A DNA stretch of 25,848 nucleotides from PVC group bacterium (GTDB taxonomy: Bacteria > Auribacterota > Erginobacteria > Erginobacterales > Erginobacteraceae), in the NCBI GenBank assembly GCA_043804695.1, contig JAZDIV010000090.1:1-25848 (forward strand), written 5' to 3'. The position numbers and the translations under genes were made by a program. The stretch's first letter is position 1. Every line of letters starts with the position of its first letter. This document shows, one piece after another, positions 6,132 through 25,577 of the stretch. The notes below the pieces were generated by a model that worked only from the letters and a program-made list of their open reading frames with translations, did no database searches and had not been told where the DNA came from.

Positions 6132-7007
6132 ATGAACGAAAAAGTATATATTGCCCGGACGCAGGATCCCTACCGGGGCGCCGGCGAGGTTCTGGACGGG
6201 CTCGGCTTCCGGGTCACCGGCCGCCGGGTCTTCATCAAGCCCAACCTGACCGGCTGCCGCCCTTCCCGGGAGGGGATGGGTGTGGACATCGGCCTGGTCC
6301 GGGCGGTCCTGGAGCGGCTGGTCGATTGCCCGGTGATCACGATCGGCGAGTCCTGCAGCAAGACGGAGCGGTCGTTTGCCGCGCCGGGGTACCGGGACCT
6401 GCAAAAAGAGTACCCGCAGCTGAGGTTCCTGGACATGCGGGAGTCGGAGCATTGCTGGAAACCGATCCCCCGGCCCTTTCACACGGCCGAGATGCCGTTT
6501 GCCGCCGAGATCTTCGACCACGATTACCTGGTCAACATCGCCAAGCTGAAGACCCATTCCCTGGCCGGGGTGACGCTCTGCCTGAAGAACATCTTCGGCT
6601 TCATCCCCACCCGGAAGCAGAAGCTGATGTACCATCCTTTCATCCGCGCGGCGGTCCTGGACATGAACCAGGTGATCAGGAGCGATTTCTGCCTGGTGGA
6701 CGGGGTCTGGGGCAACGAGTTTGACGAGATCCAGTCCACTCCGATCAACGCCGGGGTGGTGATCGGGGGGGAGAATATCCTGGCGGTGGACGCGGTGGCG
6801 GCGGCGGTGATGGGAATCGACACCAGGAAGATGAACTCCTACCGGCTGGCGGAAGAGCTTTTCGGCGCCCCGGAGGCCACCATCCTCGGCACGCCTATCC
6901 GCGAGGTTTGCGGGTCGTTTCGCCAGGGCTGCCTGCTCACCACCCGCTTTCGCTACCTGAAGGAAGGCGCCCAGAGCCTCTTCTACCGCGCCGTCTCCCG
7001 CCATTGA
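6132..7007 (+). CDS. DUF362 domain protein
   Basis: VFIKPNL, ITIGES, VNIAKLKTH..AGVTLCLKNIFG, LVDG and AVDAVAAAVMG motifs; the only credible plus-strand gene. Confidence 0.85.
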   Translation: MNEKVYIARTQDPYRGAGEVLDGLGFRVTGRRVFIKPNLTGCRPSREGMGVDIGLVRAVLERLVDCPVITIGESCSKTERSFAAPGYRDLQKEYPQLRFLDMRESEHCWKPIPRPFHTAEMPFAAEIFDHDYLVNIAKLKTHSLAGVTLCLKNIFGFIPTRKQKLMYHPFIRAAVLDMNQVIRSDFCLVDGVWGNEFDEIQSTPINAGVVIGGENILAVDAVAAAVMGIDTRKMNSYRLAEELFGAPEATILGTPIREVCGSFRQGCLLTTRFRYLKEGAQSLFYRAVSRH

Positions 7008-7048
7008 GGATCGGTCGGATCAGTCGGATCCGACCGATCGGTCCGGTA
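7004..7048. repeat. Intergenic tandem 9-mer repeat between convergent genes, copy D
   Basis: TTGAGGATC GGTCGGATC AGTCGGATC CGACCGATC GGTCCGGTA; self-complementary, so it could form a hairpin. Confidence 0.8.
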
Positions 7049-7053
7049 ACAAT

Positions 7054-14016: not shown

Positions 14017-14541
14017 TCACTGCTTCAGCAGTGCCGTGATGTCTTCCTCAAAAACCTCCCGGGGCCGGAAGCCGACATACTGCTTATACACCCTGCCTTC
14101 CCGGTCGATGACGAACGTGGTGGGGATGCCGGTTACTCCGCCGTACGCCCGGTCCACCTTCCCATCGGTGAGAAGAATGGGGTAATTGATCTTGTATTTC
14201 TCCACGAAAGGAGGAAGGACACCCCGCGGTTTCTGATCAAGGCTGATCCCGAGGATCTCCACGCCCTTCCCGGCGTACTCCTTGTAGAGTTCGACGAAGT
14301 CCGGTATCTCCTTGCGGCAGGGAGGGCACCAGGTGGCCCAGAAATCAATGATGACGATCTTGCCGCGGTAATCGGCGAGCCTGATCCTTCCTCCGCCCAG
14401 CTTCTCCAGGTCAAAATCGGGGGCCTGCTTGATGGTGACGGCTGAACCGCTCCCTGTCGTTCGGGTGTCGCATCCGCCCAAACATATCCCCGCACACAGG
14501 ACTGCGAGGACGATTGCGGTCACCTTCTTGCTATTGATCAT
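14017..14541 (-). CDS. TlpA/ResA-family thiol-disulfide oxidoreductase, lipoprotein
   Basis: LGGC lipobox, APDF, FWATWCPPCRKEIP and GIPTTFVIDREG motifs. Confidence 0.93.
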   Translation of the reverse strand: MINSKKVTAIVLAVLCAGICLGGCDTRTTGSGSAVTIKQAPDFDLEKLGGGRIRLADYRGKIVIIDFWATWCPPCRKEIPDFVELYKEYAGKGVEILGISLDQKPRGVLPPFVEKYKINYPILLTDGKVDRAYGGVTGIPTTFVIDREGRVYKQYVGFRPREVFEEDITALLKQ

Positions 14542-15735: not shown

Positions 15736-15805
15736 TCCTACAGCCTCCTTCTTTTAAGGAACGGCATCTTTCTATCCAACCTCTGTCTGGAGAGAAGATC
15801 TCACA

Positions 15806-15861
15806 GTAGCACAGACATTCCTGTCTGTGCCGCAGAGTGACACAGACATTCCTGTCTGTGC
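15806..15861 (+). repeat. Tandem REP-like hairpins (GTAG/GTGA-CACAGAC-ATTCCT-GTCTGTG-C), pair 1
   Basis: Copies at 15806-15830 and 15837-15861; identical cores at 19212 and 19244. Confidence 0.85.
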
Positions 15862-15907
15862 AGCCCACCGTCCGCCCCCCACCGGGAGGGGTTCTCTTTT
15901 TCCGTCG

Positions 15908-16615: not shown

Positions 16616-16666
16616 GATACCTCCCGTTTTAAGTTCAGATTACAATGTTAGGTCTCTTTACCCTTG

Positions 16667-17911
16667 TCAGGAAGTACGCTCCAGCATGATCGAGGCCCTA
16701 CCTGTTATGATCTTCTGGAGATGCTTGGTCTTCGCTGCGTCATCATTTGGGATCGACGTTCCAACGGCGTCAAGCTTGTCCGGGATCATCCGGCAGATCT
16801 CGCCTATTCGCTCACGTATCATTGGCCAACCAAGGCGGGTCTCTTGTGTCATCTTCTGCCAGTTACCGACAGTAAGCGTATCGAGTGATCTGCCGCCACC
16901 GATCTTCATCGCCAGATTCCGCGAGAGTTCCGGCCAGGCAAGTGTGCAGACAAGATCGTAGAACGGCGACAGCCTGCGTTCGCCGCCACGGTACAGGATC
17001 GAGTAGTTCTTGCCGTGCGCGTCGGCATTCCCGATCAGCACATTGAAGATCAACGCATCGATGAAGTCGCGAATATCCACAACAGGCGCGGTGGACCATT
17101 CGCGTAGTAGTGAAATGCAGTCCCGAAGCAGCGGGCCTCCCTCTTCCTGGTACTTTCGCTCCGGTGGAAATCCGAGCGCCTGACAGAAGTCCTCCTGGTG
17201 CAGTCGTGTGGTAGTACCGTCCCTATTGATCAGCCGGTCATACCTTTGAACCAGAATACACGCCTTCTCGCCGACGAGACGATACTCGACGGAAGGCACG
17301 TTCAGTCCAACGGCACCTGCCAATTTCATGCACAAGATTTCGTTGGCGACCAGTCCGGGAAAACGGTCCGGTTCCGGTTTCAGGATGTGTGAACTCGGCG
17401 TATTATCGAGGGGCAGACTGATCTTGCGGTCATGAACAACGACAGGCAATTTATCCTGAGCGCCGGCCAGCGACAGCCGGACGCCCTCCATGCCGGCCAT
17501 CAGGGGCCGGAGGGGAAGCTCGGCTACCACGTCCTTTAATTCTGTCTCGCTCAATTCACGCAGCCGGGTATCCTCTGGTTGTGGCGGCGCGGTACCTTCC
17601 TGAAGCAGGCTCACGGCTCCCGCGCACTCGCCTCCTATACGCTCCAGCATGGCGAAATCATTACGCTCGCTGATTCCAAGGATCGCGGCTATCTTTCTCC
17701 GGGGATCTTCATCGGGCAAAATGCCTGCGAAAAAGGGTCTGACTTTTTTCCCCTGGAATGCCTCTGGTTGGAGAGGCAGTGATCGGGAAAGAGGTATTGC
17801 ATCCGGCCGGTTGAGCCACGTCTCATCGTAGCGGAACTGCATCAGGCCGCTCTCGTCTTGTTCGAGAGAGCCTACCCTCTTGTTATGCAGATAAACAATC
17901 AGGCGCTTCAT
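16667..17911 (-). CDS. hipA: Type II toxin HipA (Ser/Thr kinase)
   Basis: Couple_hipA N-terminus (PLSRSLPL, FFAGILPD), IGGECAGAV, SLAGAQDK, HILKP, HQEDFCQALG..PERKY, IGNADAHGKNYS and LSPFYDL motifs. Confidence 0.95.
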   Translation of the reverse strand: MKRLIVYLHNKRVGSLEQDESGLMQFRYDETWLNRPDAIPLSRSLPLQPEAFQGKKVRPFFAGILPDEDPRRKIAAILGISERNDFAMLERIGGECAGAVSLLQEGTAPPQPEDTRLRELSETELKDVVAELPLRPLMAGMEGVRLSLAGAQDKLPVVVHDRKISLPLDNTPSSHILKPEPDRFPGLVANEILCMKLAGAVGLNVPSVEYRLVGEKACILVQRYDRLINRDGTTTRLHQEDFCQALGFPPERKYQEEGGPLLRDCISLLREWSTAPVVDIRDFIDALIFNVLIGNADAHGKNYSILYRGGERRLSPFYDLVCTLAWPELSRNLAMKIGGGRSLDTLTVGNWQKMTQETRLGWPMIRERIGEICRMIPDKLDAVGTSIPNDDAAKTKHLQKIITGRASIMLERTS

Positions 17912-18286: not shown

Positions 18287-18361
18287 AATTCCAGGGACAC
18301 AACCCATATCGTTAAAATTTAGTTTGGGTTCCGACCCTGTTCCCTTTGTGTCACCGGAATT
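18287..18361. mobile_element. 75-bp MITE-like element
   Basis: Terminal inverted repeats AATTCCAGGGACACAA / TTGTGTCACCGGAATT (14/16); internal GGGTTCCGACCCTGTT motif shared with the repeats at ~19500 and ~23312. Confidence 0.55.
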
Positions 18362-18368
18362 ATTTGCG

Positions 18369-18401
18369 TCACCACCCCGATTGAATCAATCGGGGTGGTG
18401 A
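18369..18401. repeat. Perfect palindrome TCACCACCCCGATTGA-A-TCAATCGGGGTGGTGA
   Basis: 16-bp arms with a 1-nt centre; related copies at 21365-21391 and 24193-24215. Confidence 0.9.
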
Positions 18402-18509
18402 TCCTCGACCTATACTCTTTGTTTGCTCTCCTTTTCTCAGCCCCGGAATGTTACGGGGCAAACCAGAACAATCGTCACTTTTTGATTCAACCGGGAACAA
18501 CCAAGTGTG

Positions 18510-18572
18510 GATTACAATTTTCCCGCGATGGGAGGTTCGCGTCTATTGACACCCGGAGGGCTTTATAAGGGT
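18510..18572. repeat. Gene-end motif, copy 1 (GATTACAATT...GGGAGGTT...TTGAC.CCCGGAGG....TAAGGGT)
   Basis: Aligns with 21663-21735 and, in its right part, with 23357-23383. Confidence 0.75.
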
Positions 18573-19102
18573 TGAGCTTTCTGCTGTATGAATGCTTCCC
18601 TATCGCTGGTGGCAACAACTATTATTAAAACGAGGTTTACAACAACGCTAAAAAGACCCCCAAAAACAAGTACCATGCCTAAGGAGGCTGTCTGTGTCAG
18701 GGCTCCCACTAAGCCTTTAACCAGGGTAAGGAATATGGATACTCCGGCAGCATAATAGAACATTGAGATTGCAGAAGGCTTGACTTGAAGAAGTCTAATC
18801 GAAGCAAATAAGTAAAACCCGGAGACAAGCAATGAAAGGACGCCGGCAATCACACACCATGTACCATACCAATGAGGAACATTCCACATTTTCTCAAATA
18901 TCTTGAACATTTCTTTCGGTCGCGCCTGATGACCGGCATTTCCTTCACTTTTCTCGAATGATTCTTTCATATCTGAGAACATTTCTTTCTGAATTTCCAT
19001 TATCTTGGGGAAGATCATGAGTTGACCTCCCCCGATAATGCCGAGGCATCCCAAAATGATGCCCAGTACTCCTACTACCGTTGCCCACGTTGGTCTTTTC
19101 AA
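18563..19102 (-). CDS. Hypothetical membrane protein (4 TM)
   Basis: TTG start at 19102 with GAAGGAG RBS just after the attC R' box GTTAAAT; MKRPTWATVVGVLGII... The ORF-track extension to 19489 is translated repeat DNA. Confidence 0.8.
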   Translation of the reverse strand: MKRPTWATVVGVLGIILGCLGIIGGGQLMIFPKIMEIQKEMFSDMKESFEKSEGNAGHQARPKEMFKIFEKMWNVPHWYGTWCVIAGVLSLLVSGFYLFASIRLLQVKPSAISMFYYAAGVSIFLTLVKGLVGALTQTASLGMVLVFGGLFSVVVNLVLIIVVATSDREAFIQQKAQPL

Positions 19103-19129
19103 TTGTAGTCTCCTTCCCGTATCTAAAAA

Positions 19130-19208
19130 ATTTAACATCGAGTTAAGCAGCCGGATCGGCGGCTCTGTCGCGCGAAGAGCAAAAAAGCTTAGCTCGGACG
19201 GTATGAAC
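19130..19208 (-). mobile_element. Truncated attC site (R'/L' half and loop retained; R'' replaced by REP copies)
   Basis: R' GTTAAAT; the body GGCGGCTCTGTCGCGCGAAG.GC.AAAA.AGCTT is homologous to the attC sites at 22841 and 24073. Confidence 0.75.
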
Positions 19209-19211
19209 AGA

Positions 19212-19268
19212 GTGACACAGACATTCCTGTCTGTGCAGCAAGAGTGACACAGACATTCCTGTCTGTGC
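19212..19268 (+). repeat. Tandem REP-like hairpins, pair 2
   Basis: GTGACACAGACATTCCTGTCTGTGC at 19212-19236 and 19244-19268. Confidence 0.85.
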
Positions 19269-19418
19269 GCCCCCCGCTCCCTCAGGGATGGGTTAGGGGG
19301 GAGGGAGGTAGTTAGTTTCCAGTCATGTCTCCACCCCGGCAAGCCCCGATAAATCGGGGCAGAGCGGGGGTGGTGGACTTTATTTTTCTCCCTCCTTTTC
19401 TCCACCCCGGAATCTGGC

Positions 19419-19521
19419 AAATCAATAAGCTGTACGGTACGATGGCATGTATCGCGCGGTGCGTTAAGATACAGTGTAGCTGCCTTCAAACTTATTATTT
19501 GGTGTCCGACCCTGTTTTCTC
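19419..19521. repeat. ~105-bp dispersed block, copy 1
   Basis: About 80% identical by manual alignment to 23227-23333, including an identical TGCGTTAAGATACAGTGT and GACCCTGTTTTCTC. Confidence 0.85.
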
Positions 19522-21300
19522 GTCGGCTCCAGCCGTCTTGTCACCAATGTTTTGCTCTGCTCCAGGAACCAATGCATAGGCTTGAATTGTGTCTTGATAC
19601 ATGGTTACCAAGTATCCTTTTCCGCCGGGTCCGCTCGCTACCGCGAAGGCTTTAAGCGTATCTTTTATAGGCAAGGAGGCCAACTTCACGCCCGTTGGCG
19701 AGGCTATTACCAGGTCGCCTGTATTCTCACGAAAAATCCAGTCCTTGAGGTTATCCCCATCCATGTCTCCACAGGCAAAGGTTGTGCCTCGCCATGCACC
19801 AGGATCTTTTATTCCCGCAGTTGACCACGACACTTCCCCTTGAGGATTGAATCCCACAATGTTCCCCTCTCCAAGAGCAATGACCTGAACAGTGCCCACA
19901 TTGTCAACCACTGAAGCTGTCATTTGGGCATAGTACTTGTCAAGGGGCCTCAGCACATGAAGCTGGTGTCCCTCTCGGTCATAAACGCGGATCGTCCCTC
20001 CTGCTTCGGTGGCAAGAACCAGACAGTCATTTGGCTCTTCTGGTGAAACAATGGCTTGGTTCCATACGTTTCCGATATCCTTGACTTTCCATCGGACTTC
20101 CCCGTTGGCAGATACAGCGTGGAGACCACCGCCTCCGTTCATTCCTACGATGAGCTCATCAGTGCCATCACGATCCAGATCTCCCCAGTGTGCGCCATCA
20201 ACCCCGGGTGTCGTTGGGTATTCCCAGATCATGTTGCCCTGGGTGTCAAGTACTGTAACTTGTTTCCCCCAATTAGAGTATCCCAGGAGTCTGGCGCCTT
20301 GTGTTGCGTGATGGCCAATTTCTATTTGAGAAAATGTTGTAGGCAGGGAAATACTGGCCTTGATGCGGCCCTTTAGACTGATGACATGCATTTGCTTGTC
20401 GCGGTCAATTACCAGAATATCATCTACCCCATCGCCATCCCAGTCCCCCGCACAGATGCTGCGACAACCTGCCATGTCCAGGTCCCATTGAAGTGCCAAC
20501 TGATTTGCCACTCCGGTCTCCTGCAAATTGGACTTCACAATGGGAGGCTGTTCCTTGGGTTCCCCCTGATAGTCTTCGGCCAGAGCGGCTGTTCTGATTG
20601 TCTCATAATCGTGATAGCCCACGAAAACGTTCTGAATCACTCCGTTTCTATCGATGAAGAAGGTTGTAGGTATTGATCGAACATCCCCGTAGGGGGATGG
20701 CAAATCATCGCTGGAAGCGATGGGGTAGTTGATGCCTTTCTTCTTAACGAACTTCTCGATAACTTCCTTGTTTTCCGAACTTATGCCGATAATAACGAGA
20801 TCATCTCGCGAGGTATCGCTTGCCAATTTGATAAAGTGGGGTATCTCCTTGACGCAGGGAGGACACCAGGTAGCCCAAAAATCGAGGACTACGCGCTTGC
20901 CTCGCAGATCTTTTAATCGGATTTCCTTACCATCCAGCCCCTGCATAGTAAAATCGGGGGCTATGACACCTTGCCAAACTTCGGCTGATGGGCCTTCTTT
21001 CTTCATGCCATCGTATGCGGCACGAAAGCGCTTGTATCCTTGGTAGTACAAATATCCTAAACAGATGGAGGCCAACAGTCCCACGACAGATAAACTGATT
21101 CCCCATATTGCTAATTTTTTGAATATCTTCCTTCTCTTCAGGTGAACCACGCCCAAAACAGCGCCAATGAGTGCAAGTATCCCGCCAACCAGAAACAGGC
21201 TGAAGGCAATGGAGATTATTCCCAGTATTAAGCTGGCGACAGGCAGCCCGATGTGGAGTGATTCTCCCGTTTGTACAGGAACATCCGAATTATTTTTCAT
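19495..21300 (-). CDS. Membrane-anchored TlpA-like thioredoxin fused to an FG-GAP/beta-propeller domain
   Basis: N-terminal TM helices (DUF4190-like); APDF...FWATWCPPCVKEIP...IPTTFFID; then GDWDGDGVDDIL, GDLDRDGTDELI and GDMDGDNLKDWI repeats. Confidence 0.85.
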   Translation of the reverse strand: MKNNSDVPVQTGESLHIGLPVASLILGIISIAFSLFLVGGILALIGAVLGVVHLKRRKIFKKLAIWGISLSVVGLLASICLGYLYYQGYKRFRAAYDGMKKEGPSAEVWQGVIAPDFTMQGLDGKEIRLKDLRGKRVVLDFWATWCPPCVKEIPHFIKLASDTSRDDLVIIGISSENKEVIEKFVKKKGINYPIASSDDLPSPYGDVRSIPTTFFIDRNGVIQNVFVGYHDYETIRTAALAEDYQGEPKEQPPIVKSNLQETGVANQLALQWDLDMAGCRSICAGDWDGDGVDDILVIDRDKQMHVISLKGRIKASISLPTTFSQIEIGHHATQGARLLGYSNWGKQVTVLDTQGNMIWEYPTTPGVDGAHWGDLDRDGTDELIVGMNGGGGLHAVSANGEVRWKVKDIGNVWNQAIVSPEEPNDCLVLATEAGGTIRVYDREGHQLHVLRPLDKYYAQMTASVVDNVGTVQVIALGEGNIVGFNPQGEVSWSTAGIKDPGAWRGTTFACGDMDGDNLKDWIFRENTGDLVIASPTGVKLASLPIKDTLKAFAVASGPGGKGYLVTMYQDTIQAYALVPGAEQNIGDKTAGADEKTGSDTK

Positions 21301-21440
21301 GCGTTATCCTTTCCGTCCAAAATTAGTTGAATTTAGTATTGTGTTGCCGGAATTATTTGCGCCCCCACCCCGATTGATTCAATCGGGGTGGTGATCCTTT
21401 TCTCCACCTCGGAATTATTTGAATTAAGTATTACTACCTA

Positions 21441-21575
21441 GGCCACAATTCAGTTTGCATTAGGGTAATAGAATAAAAATATGAGATAATCAACCTAATT
21501 GCCTCTACCACATTGGCTTAAGACATTCTAAAGCGGGAATGTAGAATCTTGCCAAGTGCAAACTGAAATACGGCC
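21441..21575. mobile_element. 135-bp MITE-like element with 24-bp imperfect terminal inverted repeats
   Basis: GGCCACAATTCAGTTTGCATTAGG vs the reverse complement of CCAAGTGCAAACTGAAATACGGCC (19/24); AT-rich non-coding interior; no clear target duplication. Confidence 0.55.
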
Positions 21576-21662
21576 AGATTAGTATGTCCCCGGAATTCCG
21601 GCTCTTTTATTAGACAATCCGTGGCAATTATTCCTTGGCTGAAACATAAATAAAAAAGCGTA

Positions 21663-21735
21663 GATTACAATTATTCTGCGGCGGGAGGTTTGTGCCTATT
21701 TCCCCCTGTTGACGCCCGGAGGCCTTGTTAAGGGT
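21663..21735. repeat. Gene-end motif, copy 2
   Basis: Aligns with 18510-18572 with a 10-bp indel. Confidence 0.75.
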
Positions 21736-21760
21736 AAGGATTTGTCTATAACCAAATCCT

Positions 21761-22147
21761 TCACTTCTGACCATAAAATCGAGAAACTTCGCGGAGCAAA
21801 TCCCTCCTGGCTACGATTCCCACCACTTTTTTCCCCTCCACAATCGGAATGCGCCGGAAGTTATGTTCACTCAAGCTGATGCAAAGCTTTTCATAGGGTG
21901 TGTCAGGCGGGAAGCATATCACCTCTTTGGTCATGGCCTCTTTTACTACAGTCTGAGGCAGGCTGCCGCTGAGAATGAAATTTAACATATCCTTCTCGGT
22001 AATAATTCCCACCATCTCATTCTCTTGGTTAACCACCGGCAGACCGCTGATCTTATTTTGGATCAACTTGAATAAAGCCTCTCGCAAAGGTGCTTCTGCT
22101 TGGATGGTAACAACTTCCCGAGTCATAATATCTGCTGCCGTAACCAT
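21761..22147 (-). CDS. Stand-alone CBS-pair protein
   Basis: AADIMTREVVTI, ISGLPVV...VGIITEKD, VKEAMTKEV, RRIPIVEGKKVVGIVARRD; AGGAGG RBS before Met 22147. Confidence 0.92.
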   Translation of the reverse strand: MVTAADIMTREVVTIQAEAPLREALFKLIQNKISGLPVVNQENEMVGIITEKDMLNFILSGSLPQTVVKEAMTKEVICFPPDTPYEKLCISLSEHNFRRIPIVEGKKVVGIVARRDLLREVSRFYGQK

Positions 22148-22185
22148 CTCAACCTCCTTGGATTGAATTACTTCTATCAATGGAA

Positions 22186-22253
22186 TACTAACGCTTGGGA
22201 TAACTTGTAAAATCGCGCAGCTATTTTTTGTCAGGTTGATCCCGTTGTCCGGC
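22186..22253 (-). mobile_element. attC site (68 bp), R'' degenerate
   Basis: Minus strand: R'' GCCGGAC-AACGG-L'' GATCAACC ... L' AGTTATC-CCAAGC-R' GTTAGTA; GGGAT(C)AAC pairs with GTTATCCC, leaving one extra base. Confidence 0.7.
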
Positions 22254-22820
22254 TTTGGTATCTCCCGCAACCTTCCGCAGGATCATCGGTTCCCTGTACT
22301 CAAATAACTTCAGGTTATCAGGATCAATGATGAACTCAAGAAGCTTCTCGGGCGCGGTCGTTATCGTTATGTCGGTACTGTACTGCTGCTGCTTAATTAC
22401 CCCATCGAGTTGCTTTTTCTCGATCGCTTCCTCAAATACGTCCTCATTGGGTAACCAGAGAATCAGGTCACCTTGCTCCGAGAACTTGTACGCGAGGAAT
22501 AGGTAATCATCCATCCATTTGCCGTCTTCTTGAAATCGAACGGACAAAAAGTTGTGCTTGTCTCCCTCTGTCACAATCATCTCGCCCTGGACAATGTGGA
22601 ATTGATTGTTCTCCCATTCCAATCCTGCAATCTGAGCAATACCATTGCTGCCGAATTGTACATGGACTACGGTATCATCCACAAGCCAGACGCCTTCAAA
22701 CTTCTCTTGGTCAATCGGCTTCGGGTTGTTGGATAGAGGATGCTTGGTTGTCACGCTTGAGCAACCCGAAGTAAGTAACATGGCGGAGATTGACAATAGC
22801 ACGATTGAAAATTGTCTCAT
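22221..22820 (-). CDS. Hypothetical lipoprotein
   Basis: MRQFSIVLLSISAMLLTSGC lipobox; starts 20 bp after an attC R' box and ends inside the next attC. Confidence 0.8.
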   Translation of the reverse strand: MRQFSIVLLSISAMLLTSGCSSVTTKHPLSNNPKPIDQEKFEGVWLVDDTVVHVQFGSNGIAQIAGLEWENNQFHIVQGEMIVTEGDKHNFLSVRFQEDGKWMDDYLFLAYKFSEQGDLILWLPNEDVFEEAIEKKQLDGVIKQQQYSTDITITTAPEKLLEFIIDPDNLKLFEYREPMILRKVAGDTKAGQRDQPDKK

Positions 22821-22840
22821 TCTGTTCCCTTTTTCTTGAA

Positions 22841-22933
22841 GTGTAACATCGAGTTGAGCGCGGCGCCCCGGCGGCTCTGTCGAGCGAGGCGCGTAAAAAG
22901 CTTTGCCTGGTTTGTTCGAATAATAGATCCCTG
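22841..22933 (-). mobile_element. Degenerate attC site (93 bp)
   Basis: R' GTTACAC and L' GCTCAAC intact; full-length homology to 24073-24164; L'' and R'' mutated. Confidence 0.75.
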
Positions 22934-23036
22934 CCGCCTCGCGCGGCAGGTGAATCAATTCATCAGCTACAATCGTTGCCCCCACCCGCAAAGACCCCTG
23001 CCGGTTTATCCGGCAGGTGAATGAGTTCATTTGCTA
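22929..23036. repeat. Two 41-bp direct repeats containing a CCTGCCG-N7-CGGCAGG hairpin
   Basis: 22929-22969 and 22996-23036: CCCTGCCG..CGGCAGGTGAAT.A.TTCAT..GCTA. Confidence 0.8.
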
Positions 23037-23148
23037 TATCTGTTTTCCAAACCCCCCAGATGAAGAAGGGGAACCGGTGATTAGCTTATGAACTTTCTCC
23101 CCTTCCACACAAGGTGGCAGGGGCCGGTTGTGTTGGTTTAATTCCCAT

Positions 23149-23333
23149 GTAGCTATTGAACTTATATTCCGGTGGGACAAGCCCACCGGGGATAATTTGA
23201 ATTTAGTATTGTGTCCCCGAATTATTAAATCAATGAGCTGTGCGGCGCAGTGGCATGTGCCGCGCGGCGATGCGTTAAGATACAGTGTGTCTATCTTCAA
23301 ACTTAGTATTTAGGGTTTTGACCCTGTTTTCTC
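23149..23333. repeat. Adjacent second copies of the ~80-bp block (23149-23225) and the ~105-bp block (23227-23333)
   Basis: Homologous to 15908-15990 and 19419-19521 respectively. Confidence 0.82.
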
Positions 23334-23353
23334 CTCTGTGGGCCTTTTTATCC

Positions 23354-24022
23354 TTATTGATACCCGGAGGCTTTAATAAGCGTTCGGCGCGACTGCCCCA
23401 TCCGGCGCAGATCGGCGACAGCCTCCCTTGAAAGGAATTGAACGTCGCCTCCGGCCCCGAGGATAATCTTGCATGCCAGTTCGAAATACGTCGCTTTCTC
23501 TATCACCCCATCAAAGTCCCTTCCCACCGTGACCTGTCCATGATTGCGCAGGTTCGCCAAGTCATGCTCCCTGATTGCCGCGGTGACCGCTTCAGCAAGT
23601 TCGGGGGACCCGGGGCGCAGGTATGGTACCAACGCGACCGGTCCAACGTAATAGGGTATTTCCGGGATGATAAAGAAGTTTTCAACCTGTGGTTCCCGGC
23701 AAGCGAGGGTTGTGGCGCATGGTGATTGAAAATGCAGGACAACGTTCACGTCCCCGCGTTCACGGAGAATGGCAGTGTGAAATCCGATCTCCTTTGACGG
23801 CTTCTTTCCGTTGAGGGTTGCCCCGTCCGCGATTCTGCAAACGGCGACTTCGTCTATGGAGAGACTGACCATCCACGAGCCCGCGGCCGTGACCAGCATA
23901 CAATCATCATCAACACGCCGGGATAAGTTGCCGCTACCACAAAACACCAGGCCGTATTCAGCAACACGATGAGCTGCGGCAACAAAATCCTCCACCTGTC
24001 CTTTTGGGATGTTGTTCATCAC
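23354..24022 (-). CDS. fucA: Class II aldolase, L-fuculose-1-phosphate aldolase-like (Bacteroides FucA type)
   Basis: SGNLS.R, KPSKEIGFH..ILRER.DVNVVLHFQS, PEIPYYVG, PY.RPGSPELA and NHGQV.VG motifs. The LHFQS variant matches my recollection of Bacteroides FucA; the substrate is not certain. Confidence 0.75.
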   Translation of the reverse strand: MMNNIPKGQVEDFVAAAHRVAEYGLVFCGSGNLSRRVDDDCMLVTAAGSWMVSLSIDEVAVCRIADGATLNGKKPSKEIGFHTAILRERGDVNVVLHFQSPCATTLACREPQVENFFIIPEIPYYVGPVALVPYLRPGSPELAEAVTAAIREHDLANLRNHGQVTVGRDFDGVIEKATYFELACKIILGAGGDVQFLSREAVADLRRMGQSRRTLIKASGYQ

Positions 24023-24072: not shown

Positions 24073-24164
24073 GCCTATCATCGAGTTGAGCGTCCGGACC
24101 GGCGGCTCTGTCGCGCGAAGCGCGAAAAGAGCTTTGCCCGGTTCGCTCGAACGATTGGTTCTGA
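24073..24164 (-). mobile_element. attC site (92 bp), R' triplet mutated
   Basis: Minus strand: R'' TCAGAAC-CAATC-L'' GTTCGAGC ... L' GCTCAAC-TCGAT-R' GATAGGC; extra C in L''. Confidence 0.85.
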
Positions 24165-24262
24165 GCCGATTTATCGCCCCGGGTTCGTCACCACCCCGAT
24201 TGAATCAATCGGGGTAGGCGATGACTGAAAACTACAACACCCGCCATGCACACACTCTCCCC

Positions 24263-24824: not shown

Positions 24825-24918
24825 TTCTAACGCTGAGCTGAGCCGACATGGCACAAGCATGCCACCCCAGAGGGGGCTCGCCGGCAAGTGTCTGTATAGC
24901 TCGAATGGGTGATTAGGT
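24825..24918 (-). mobile_element. attC site (94 bp), R'' degenerate
   Basis: Minus strand: R'' ACCTAAT-CACCC-L'' ATTCGAGC ... L' GCTCAGC-TCAGC-R' GTTAGAA; same family as 25614-25700. Confidence 0.8.
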
Positions 24919-24967
24919 GGCGCGGAGCATCGCCGTCCAACCGATAAGAACGAATCTCAGCGCTGAG

Positions 24968-25423
24968 TTATGCCTTATCGGGCTCGTCAGGAAGCTCTAA
25001 GAGACGAACATCATCGAGATCAATTTTTCGCCCTGAAGCCCGCTTGGACAGAATCAGATCTTCCTTCGATGCGACGAAAAAATCCTGGCCCTGGTAATTC
25101 ATCGTCTCTCGTCTTTCCCATGCGTGGTCAAACGTCAAACCCGGGGTATCGGTCTGGACGTCAATACGGACGCGGTCTTTGAAAACGGTAATTTCGTTGG
25201 CCAGAAGCTCTTCAGCAGTGGTGAGAGATGCAGTTCCCAATCCGGCTTGGAGAAGAGCGTCCAAAAGATGCTGGGCATTTTCTATAGAAGCTTCTATCAG
25301 GATATCTAGATCGAAGGTGGCGCGGGGAACGCCATGCAAAACGGCGGCAATGCCACCGATCACCAGATATTTGACATCATGCTCTTGAAAGGAGGCGAAT
25401 ACGCCCGTTAGCCTGTTGATCAT
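24968..25423 (-). CDS. Pol-beta-fold nucleotidyltransferase (DUF6036/AbiEii-like)
   Basis: YLVIGGIAAVLHGVPRATFDLDILI, RIDV and LILSKRASGRKIDLDDV motifs. Confidence 0.85.
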   Translation of the reverse strand: MINRLTGVFASFQEHDVKYLVIGGIAAVLHGVPRATFDLDILIEASIENAQHLLDALLQAGLGTASLTTAEELLANEITVFKDRVRIDVQTDTPGLTFDHAWERRETMNYQGQDFFVASKEDLILSKRASGRKIDLDDVRLLELPDEPDKA

Positions 25424-25577
25424 CTTTGAAATCCGGAAGATTAGGGTTGTGTTGTAGGGCTAAGTCGGTAAACCAGCAGAAAAAGTCCATTCGCTCGGAA
25501 AGAGACAGACCTCTGAACCATCGTGTTTTTGCCTCAATGGATTCATCCGCGCGGTCGTGTGATATGGAAGGGTTCAT
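25377..25577 (-). CDS. 66-aa hypothetical protein, putative partner/antitoxin of the nucleotidyltransferase
   Basis: MNPSISHDRADESIEAKTRWFRGLSLSERMDFFC...; begins 36 bp after an attC R' box and overlaps the next gene by 47 bp. Confidence 0.65.
   Translation of the reverse strand: MNPSISHDRADESIEAKTRWFRGLSLSERMDFFCWFTDLALQHNPNLPDFKDDQQANGRIRLLSRA

Follow-up and report, generated by a model that had tools for sequence, protein, structure and literature searches.

A repeat at three gene ends in an Auribacterota cassette array is very probably the right end of an attC-targeting IS1111-type insertion sequence

The described systems closest to the locus considered here are insertion sequences (IS) of the IS1111 family. 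The excerpts of Siddiquee et al. (2024; PMC11187229) on which we draw tell IS1111 from IS110 elements by their 11–13-bp subterminal repeats, by the extensions outside these and by a downstream non-coding region, adding that joining of the ends in the circular form creates a promoter and that a 70–100-nt seekRNA derives from the downstream non-coding region. One set of such elements, the IS1111-attC group, comprises ISPa21, ISPst6, ISKpn4 and ISPa25 (Tetu and Holmes 2008; Post and Hall 2009, both as cited in the available portions of PMC11187229 and PMC3001079). According to the accessible sections of Léon et al. (2010; PMC3001079), ISPa21 and ISPst6 are found near the 5' end of attC, antisense to the integron array, and group IIC-attC introns likewise insert antisense near the attC 5' end. 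IS4321 and IS5075, also of the IS1111 family, have the terminal repeats of Tn21-type transposons as their target, to go by a title in the reference list of PMC11187229. Here we examine a repeat that closes three genes in a 25,848-nt contig of a PVC group bacterium of the phylum Auribacterota (JAZDIV010000090.1, assembly GCA_043804695.1; the whole stretch is referred to below as the window). The repeat is very probably the outer right end of an IS1111-type, IS110-family insertion sequence that targets integron attC sites, the copies in the window being dead stumps.

Complete relatives of the element share with the IS1111-attC group a DEDD transposase of the IS110 superfamily, subterminal repeats with short asymmetric extensions, an extended non-coding region behind the transposase gene and a single, fixed insertion point near the attC 5' end, with the element running against the cassette genes. 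Unlike that group, they have as hosts metagenome-assembled genomes (MAGs) of Auribacterota, Nitrospirota and Desulfobacterota and a Vibrio plasmid, not clinical class 1 integrons, and the window retains right-end stumps only. With IS4321 and IS5075 they have in common the subterminal repeats, extensions of 7 and 3 bp, the downstream non-coding region and a fixed target and orientation, but the target is another one and the proteins are distant (25% identity, 226 aa). Group IIC-attC introns such as S.ma.I2 occupy the same niche and interrupt the array in the same way; these, however, consist of a ribozyme and a reverse transcriptase, neither of which is present here. An attC-targeting element of the IS1111 type is thus an already known kind, not a new recombination site or mechanism. 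The original prediction, which offered the end of an attC-targeting element as one explanation of the repeat, was right in that respect but not in supposing the element to be undescribed, such elements being on record in PMC3001079 and PMC11187229 as far as those sources were consulted.

The repeat at the ends of three genes

Read directly from the window, the repeat occurs at 18546–18570 as TTGACACCCGGAGGGCTTTATAAGG, followed by GTTGAGC, at 21709–21733 as TTGACGCCCGGAGGCCTTGTTAAGG, followed by GTAAGGA, and at 23357–23381 as TTGATACCCGGAGGCTTTAATAAGC, followed by GTTCGGC. That one and the same motif stands at all three gene ends is borne out by counting: the pattern TTGAYRCCCGGAGGSYTT, with up to two mismatches allowed, has three matches in the window against 0.05 expected, and three or more were reached in none of 100 shuffles. 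A profile built from seven copies recognises all three (Table 1), the next best match in the rest of the window having an E-value of only 0.32. All three are read from the strand opposite to that of the genes, each adjoining the 3' end of a gene. The motif itself supplies the stop codon of the gene at 18563, the last two codons and TAA stop of which fall within the first stump, and it encodes the last nine codons and the stop of the aldolase-like gene at 23354.

The outer edge of the homology is at the identical point in all copies. Beyond it the flank begins GTT in six of the eight copies in the window's genome, the exceptions being GTA at 21734 and GTC at C110:18570, so the expectation that homology stops at GT(T) is upheld for the point itself and only in part for the triplet. 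On the gene strand the flank of each window copy reads ..AAC (once ..TAC), an R''-type box; the GTT does, as had been proposed, belong to an R'' box, and the three attC sites concerned are not intact. The box at 18571–18577 occupies the position that GCTAAC has at the complete element of a same-genus genome described below, and the flank of the third copy, GTTCGGC, also adjoins a related element on a Candidatus Manganitrophus plasmid. Across the window's genome an open reading frame (ORF) of 139–352 codons on the opposite strand ends between −30 and +25 nt of the boundary in six of eight copies.

On the inner side the copies vary in extent. Two are about 90 nt or longer and one is 43–47 nt. 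The homology was thought to end at GATTACAATT, but two window copies reach inward past it (repeat families D5 and D17 of the window): copy 1 matches relatives over about 178 nt, and copy 2 has about 140 nt in common with a further stump in the same genome (C24:22923). No attC remainder is found on the inner side of any of the three window stumps; the inner sides pass into other repeat modules of the genome or into the leader of the next gene.

Nothing in these copies resembles a conserved fold. RNAalifold predicted three pairs for one strand, 13 weak ones for the other and none over 37 copies, with essentially no compensatory change (one pair in one sequence), and Rfam at the gathering score found no family in the window. 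The repeat is therefore conserved as sequence and not as a fold, which argues against its being an attC site. The R''-L''...L'-R' hairpin by which an attC is recognised is absent from the motif, and only the flanking R'' is an attC part.

Complete elements in related genomes

The assembly of the window's genome runs to 2.97 Mb in 155 contigs and is 88% complete. It holds eight right-end copies, seven long and one short, on four contigs. A profile made from sequence only was searched in 61 genomes, the window's own included: four of the eight other genomes of the same family carry copies (6, 2, 5 and 1), and outside the family one genome of 52 matched, weakly. An integron integrase scoring above the NCBIfam cut-off is present in three of the four motif-carrying relatives; none above that cut-off was found in the window's genome.

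The relative of most use is a same-genus genome (G001), one contig of which (G001:C7, locus L043) carries an intI gene on the minus strand (442.6 bits against a cut-off of 265) and, beyond it, a plus-strand cassette array with 11 canonical attC sites. Some 12.7 kb into this array from intI, the motif, here in its only copy on the contig (L043 15731–15814), forms the end of a 1,706-bp element. The element has an ORF of 347–405 aa that runs against the cassettes, in the direction of intI, and matches Pfam DEDD_Tnp_IS110 (E = 1.9e-12) and Transposase_20 (E = 5.4e-15) and, with 180 bits where 140 are required, NCBIfam NF033542 ('IS110 family RNA-guided transposase'). A comparison with IS1111/IS110 ends, one of the checks suggested at the outset, thus succeeds, the motif ending an IS110-family element in this genome. 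A second copy, at G001:C17, is 99.4% identical over 1,742 bp and has unrelated flanks, so the two copies together fix both ends of the element; a third, at G002:C25, is 78% identical. Complete elements in the relatives measure 1.5–1.7 kb.

At G001:C7 the left flank ends GCTAAC, and the right flank starts CAGTCGCTCAAGCAGACC... and runs to ...GCTTAGCTCTACGATAAGC. The insertion parts GCTAAC, the R'' box, from CAGTC-GCTCAAGC..., the spacer plus L''. When joined, the flanks are collinear with the unbroken attC sites elsewhere in that array, and no sequence is duplicated or missing. In the orientation of the element, the left end reads GATACTG followed by TTTAAGGCCTCC, and the right end TTGACG, TCC, GGAGGCCTTATA and AGG. 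TTTAAGGCCTCC and GGAGGCCTTATA form subterminal inverted repeats of 12 bp that match at 11 of 12 positions around a perfect 10-bp core, TAAGGCCTCC, a match that also holds in 12 aligned left ends; from this pairing we take GGAGGCCTTATA to be the probable right subterminal inverted repeat. Beyond the repeats the element continues for 7 bp on its left side, GATACTG, and for 3 bp on its right, AGG, in place of which other lineages have AGT. The outer 25 nt of the first window copy (18546–18570) contain the same parts, namely a −35-like TTGACA, the right subterminal inverted repeat, here carrying a 1-nt insertion (GGAGGGCTTTATA), and the extension AGG; this copy is without one 10-nt ATAGGNAAAA-type unit that other copies have.

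The non-coding sequence of the complete element amounts to 97 nt upstream of the transposase gene against 565 nt downstream, the former measured from the left end at L043 17436 to the MRFYTQ start at 17339, which aligns with residue 1 of the Vibrio transposase. Complete relatives thus combine a DEDD/RuvC-like transposase with subterminal repeats, 7/3-bp extensions and a longer downstream non-coding region, as expected of IS1111. Insertion near the attC 5' end in antisense orientation, as in the IS1111-attC group, is seen at G001:C7, and the window stumps abut the ..AAC/..TAC box. The window copies are not intact insertion sequences: they are without transposase, and contig C90 contains no left end either by pattern (up to three mismatches) or by profile. 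An octamer, YTAACTGG, is found in the downstream non-coding region of all five elements examined (L043, L050, L054–L056), twice in four of them; in the G001 element it lies about 54 and 252 nt past the transposase stop. The octamers are candidate guide segments of a seek/bridge RNA, because CTAAC is the R'' side of the target. Exact matches of 6–9 nt between the 565-nt region and the rebuilt targets consisted of scattered 6–7-mers only, with no clear guide.

How the stumps arose can be outlined on this basis. In the relatives the element inserts between R'' (..AAC) and the 5-nt spacer and L'' of an attC site, without target duplication and with its transposase gene pointing against the cassette genes. 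Such a site and such an antisense orientation bring the right end up against the complement of R'' (GTTRRRY), just past the stop of the upstream gene, precisely the position of the window copies. By analogy with ISEc11 and ISKpn4, the element may excise as a circle; its joined ends would put the TTGACA of the right end 18 nt from the GATACT of the left end, giving a promoter for the transposase and a guide RNA, as in described elements. TTGACA is accordingly probably the −35 box of a circle-junction promoter and GATACT its −10 partner, and the 565-nt region that follows the transposase gene may, again by analogy, encode a guide ('seek' or bridge) RNA. The window stumps keep 43–178 nt of the right end together with R'', but transposase, left end and the remainder of attC are gone. 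These attC sites are therefore destroyed, which presumably immobilises the cassettes on either side.

Other remains of the element are scattered in the window's genome. A transposase query found no intact copy there but fragments of 22–117 aa only, none of them on the window's contig, and three left-end pieces are present (C65, C133 and C154), each joined to an attC remainder or to decayed flank. With matched 17-base end patterns and up to two mismatches, six right ends were found against two left-end matches, one of which, on C35, is unconfirmed, numbers that are too small, and a detection too uneven, for a right-end bias to be claimed in this genome. Among the window stumps, and between them and the G001 element, the differences amount to 15–25%, which marks the stumps as old scars, probably left by more than one lineage of the element. 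Two arrangements in relatives may be recorded beside these. At G001:C18 a left-end piece and a right-end piece (33759–33908 and 35606–35694) share a strand and are separated by 1.7 kb, yet the left end comes before the right when the contig is followed in cassette direction; this is the reverse of what a single element would show, so they are not the two ends of one. At G003:C207 a stretch of 700 nt runs from left end to right end and fits the description of a miniature inverted-repeat transposable element (MITE), with both ends and no transposase, as do two of 26 truncated copies in the public collection; a MITE was rejected for the window because no left end is present there.

The element extends well beyond the family. 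By tblastn its transposase is 62% identical to that of an element on a Candidatus Manganitrophus plasmid, about 49–55% identical to those of elements in Pseudoalteromonas, Alteromonas and Vibrio plasmids and 51% identical to that of an element on a Vibrio campbellii plasmid. In the Manganitrophus and Vibrio elements, too, TTGACN is followed by 18 nt, the end and then GTT, and the left end is GATACTN; TTGACN at 18 nt from the right end and GATACT at the start of the left end recur in all three phyla examined. Outside the left end on the Vibrio plasmid, the sequence resembles an attC arm, to judge from Vibrio repeats. In a collection of species-representative genomes the exact 21-base terminus is found at 58 distinct places, mostly in Nitrospirota and Desulfobacterota MAGs, and GTT follows it in 51 of the 57 with a readable flank. 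A near-complete transposase gene lies upstream in 15 of the 58 public copies and a 43-aa transposase remnant in one; 25 are without transposase although at least 1.5 kb of upstream sequence is covered, and 17 are too near a contig end to judge.

Several points weigh against the assignment of the window repeat to such an element. The window's own genome, at 88% completeness and in 155 contigs, contains neither a complete element nor an integrase above the cut-off, so that it is through relatives that the motif is tied to the element. From the G001 element the window copies differ by 15–25%, and inward of about 90 nt the only match of copy 2 is another stump. With 25% identity to the transposase of IS4321 (from R751) over 226 of 347 residues (pairwise E = 2e-6), descent from the named IS1111-attC group is no more than a possibility. 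A circle, a junction promoter and a guide RNA are proposed on the strength of sequence and of papers on other elements. Finally, simple random decay fails to explain the pattern of truncation among the 41 public copies whose upstream sequence extends to 1,500 nt or more (15 near-complete, one with 43 aa and 25 with none).

Alternative readings of the repeat and its stumps

A more ambitious proposal, one that we regard as unlikely, is that the copies belong to a separate lineage of attC-targeting IS110-superfamily elements, far from the IS4321 type and at home in anaerobic environmental phyla, whose abundant right-end stumps are made by their own RNA-guided recombinase at an internal look-alike of the end and do not arise through random deletion. 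Less probable again, and to our minds very doubtful, is a reading in which the stumps are not passive debris because the recombinase makes them by faulty excision, joining the left end to an internal look-alike of the right-end junction, or because some function preserves them, such as supplying stop codons or blocking re-insertion. Transposase sequence is indeed rare in truncated public copies, 25 of 26 having none and one 43 aa, and the left end is kept by two of the 26. Some stumps are recent: in one (L097) a stretch of 119 nt is 100% identical to a full copy elsewhere on its contig, and another (L080), of 151 nt, is 98.7% identical to a full copy (L101) in the same MAG. The latter occupies the precise insertion point of an attC that is intact in other respects, and the inner end of this stump is just past an internal sequence, ..CTCAATAAGTGTT, that resembles the junction of right end and target. 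Two of the window genes, moreover, end within a stump. Set against this, the inner breakpoints of the public stumps are scattered, with 23–655 nt retained and no common motif, and the retained lengths are lower bounds, few parent elements being known; no remnant of attC adjoins the inner side of the window copies; left-end stumps are also found in the window's genome, three against eight right-end copies; and an exact left boundary is seen in one case only, that of L080. Taken together, these features of the stumps give only a hint of directed truncation.

A role for the motif in host gene regulation, either as a promoter reading antisense into the upstream gene or as a terminator or 3' untranslated region signal of the cassette genes, has very little to recommend it. 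Such a role would be in keeping with the perfect or near-perfect TTGACA and with the fixed place of the motif at gene 3' ends. At the stumps, however, the sequence 18 nt past TTGACA is non-conserved flank (GTTGAG, GTAAGG, GTTCGG) and unlike a −10 box, no conserved terminator-like hairpin is present, and the fixed place is accounted for by the target choice of the element.

Least plausible of all are two further readings. In one, raised when the motif was first noticed, the repeat represents an attI-like site or the hybrid left by IntI recombination with an R'' core, which would fit its abutting an R''-type box and the position of its outer boundary beside GTT, the triplet that IntI cleaves in R'. 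The motif nevertheless has no match in the attI region of G001:C7 (L043 3486–3640) or in the intI contigs of G002 and G003; it is present in 1–8 copies per genome, in none of the genomes in which intI was found does it adjoin that gene, neither strand shows conserved pairing, and three of its copies terminate transposase-bearing elements, an attC being restored when such an element is taken out. The other takes the motif for the terminus of either a group IIC-attC intron (its 3' end) or an HUH (IS200/IS605-type) element. Both kinds enter attC-like hairpins, and the introns insert antisense near the attC 5' end (as given in the part of PMC3001079 used here), but this reading can be set aside, since the complete copies carry an IS110-type DEDD transposase and not a reverse transcriptase or HUH enzyme, Rfam finds no group II intron domain in the window and the motif has no pairing like that of domain V/VI. 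The right end of an IS1111-type, attC-targeting element thus stands as the preferred reading.

The window and its cassette array

Between 14.6 and 25.8 kb the window consists of small, mostly unrelated genes, every one of them on the minus strand, separated by spacers rich in repeats. Pfam recognises a polysaccharide deacetylase, hipBA, an AhpC/redoxin and FG-GAP protein, a CBS-domain protein, a class II aldolase-like protein and a DUF6036 nucleotidyltransferase, and several genes have no family. An uninterrupted attC on the gene strand (Table 1) makes this region a cassette array read on the minus strand; the pattern that found it also recovered the 11 attC sites of the G001:C7 integron. A search of 14 genomes of the order for empty sites of the window's cassettes yielded no direct empty site: the aldolase-like gene had no close homologue there (32% identity at best), and the CBS gene had only homologues of 39–43% in other contexts.

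Table 1. Features of the window that bear on the right-end stumps
Feature	Position	Strand	Remarks
Right-end stump, copy 1	18393..18570	+	74.4 bits; inner limit from the G001:C19 and G003:C335 copies, 140–178 nt
Cassette gene	18563..19099	-	Predicted membrane protein (hydrophobic sequence, by eye); no Pfam family
R'' box GCTCAAC (gene strand)	18571..18577	-	Of the attC presumed hit; inside the reading frame of the upstream gene
Right-end stump, copy 2	21594..21733	+	86.5 bits; ~85–90 nt match complete elements
Decayed R'' box TCCTTAC (gene strand)	21734..21740	-	20 nt past the stop of the CBS-domain gene (21761–22159)
Right-end stump, copy 3	23339..23381	+	24.6 bits, E 1.6e-4; outer 43–47 nt only, profile positions 49–96
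Class II aldolase-like gene	23354..24022	-	Ends inside right-end stump, copy 3
R'' box GCCGAAC (gene strand)	23382..23388	-	Abuts right-end stump, copy 3
Uninterrupted attC (GCATAAC-TCAGC-GCTGAG ... CTCAGC-TCAGC-GTTAGAA)	24825..24973	-	Pattern scan
Claimed lone R'' and AGATTACAAT at the hipA end	16631..16674	+	Not counted as a copy

Two further places in the window were considered as copies. A lone R'' joined to AGATTACAAT had been pointed out at 16637–16653, by the end of hipA, but with 1.7 bits and E = 4.9 against the profile it is not told from chance; the 9-mer GATTACAAT has 31 occurrences in the genome, four of them within the repeat. The possibility that hipBA is cargo between two GATTACAAT copies was also rejected, right-end homology being unbroken across the right-hand copy and the left-hand copy being noise. 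At 25411–25455, within overlapping ORFs, there is a weak profile match to the outer right end (5.5 bits, E = 0.32), which, lying in a probable nucleotidyltransferase gene pair, is probably due to chance.

Other repeats are plentiful. Three related attC-like units, at 19128–19200, 22841–22920 and 24076–24151, show ..AAC-5 nt-.. on one side and ..-5 nt-GTT.. on the opposite side whichever strand is read, and each has one decayed R box. A G+C hairpin module, CACCACCCCGATTGAATCAATCGGGGTGGTG, precedes three cassette genes (18367–18396, 21360–21389 and 24186–24215) and is accompanied by a conserved AT-rich leader (wider copies at 18346–18405 and 21339–21398). Paired units of 31–32 nt with the hairpin CACAGACATTCCTGTCTGTG occupy two array spacers (15803–15873 and 19209–19280; family D2), and short tandem arrays of a 9-nt GGATCGGTC-like unit are found in spacers of housekeeping genes (485–528, 2918–2979 and 6999–7051; family D1). 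Two thioredoxin-fold genes inside or at the edge of the array, one at 14017–14541 (recognised by eye from WCPPC) and the other the AhpC/redoxin part of 19495–21300, are paralogues, with 78% identity around the WCPPC motif over a 78-nt stretch (14290–14367 and 20827–20904; family D7). In the integron array of the same-genus relative, L043 9008–14390 consists of three tandem, apparently identical repeats of 1,883 bp, each containing an ORF of 538 aa.

The right end of an attC-targeting element offers an explanation for three cassettes that lack a functional attC: each site was split by an insertion that later decayed, and the cassettes should as a result be frozen where they are. Were the stumps made by the recombinase of the element, which we consider unlikely, stump formation would be a regular route to locking integron cassettes in place. 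For annotators working on uncultured phyla the scars have a brief signature with sharp limits, TTGACN, then 18 nt ending GGAGGCCTTATAAGK, then GTTRRRY, at places where integron finders would see only that an attC is missing. The known host range of attC-targeting IS1111-type elements is at the same time widened to genomes of the PVC group, Nitrospirota and Desulfobacterota.

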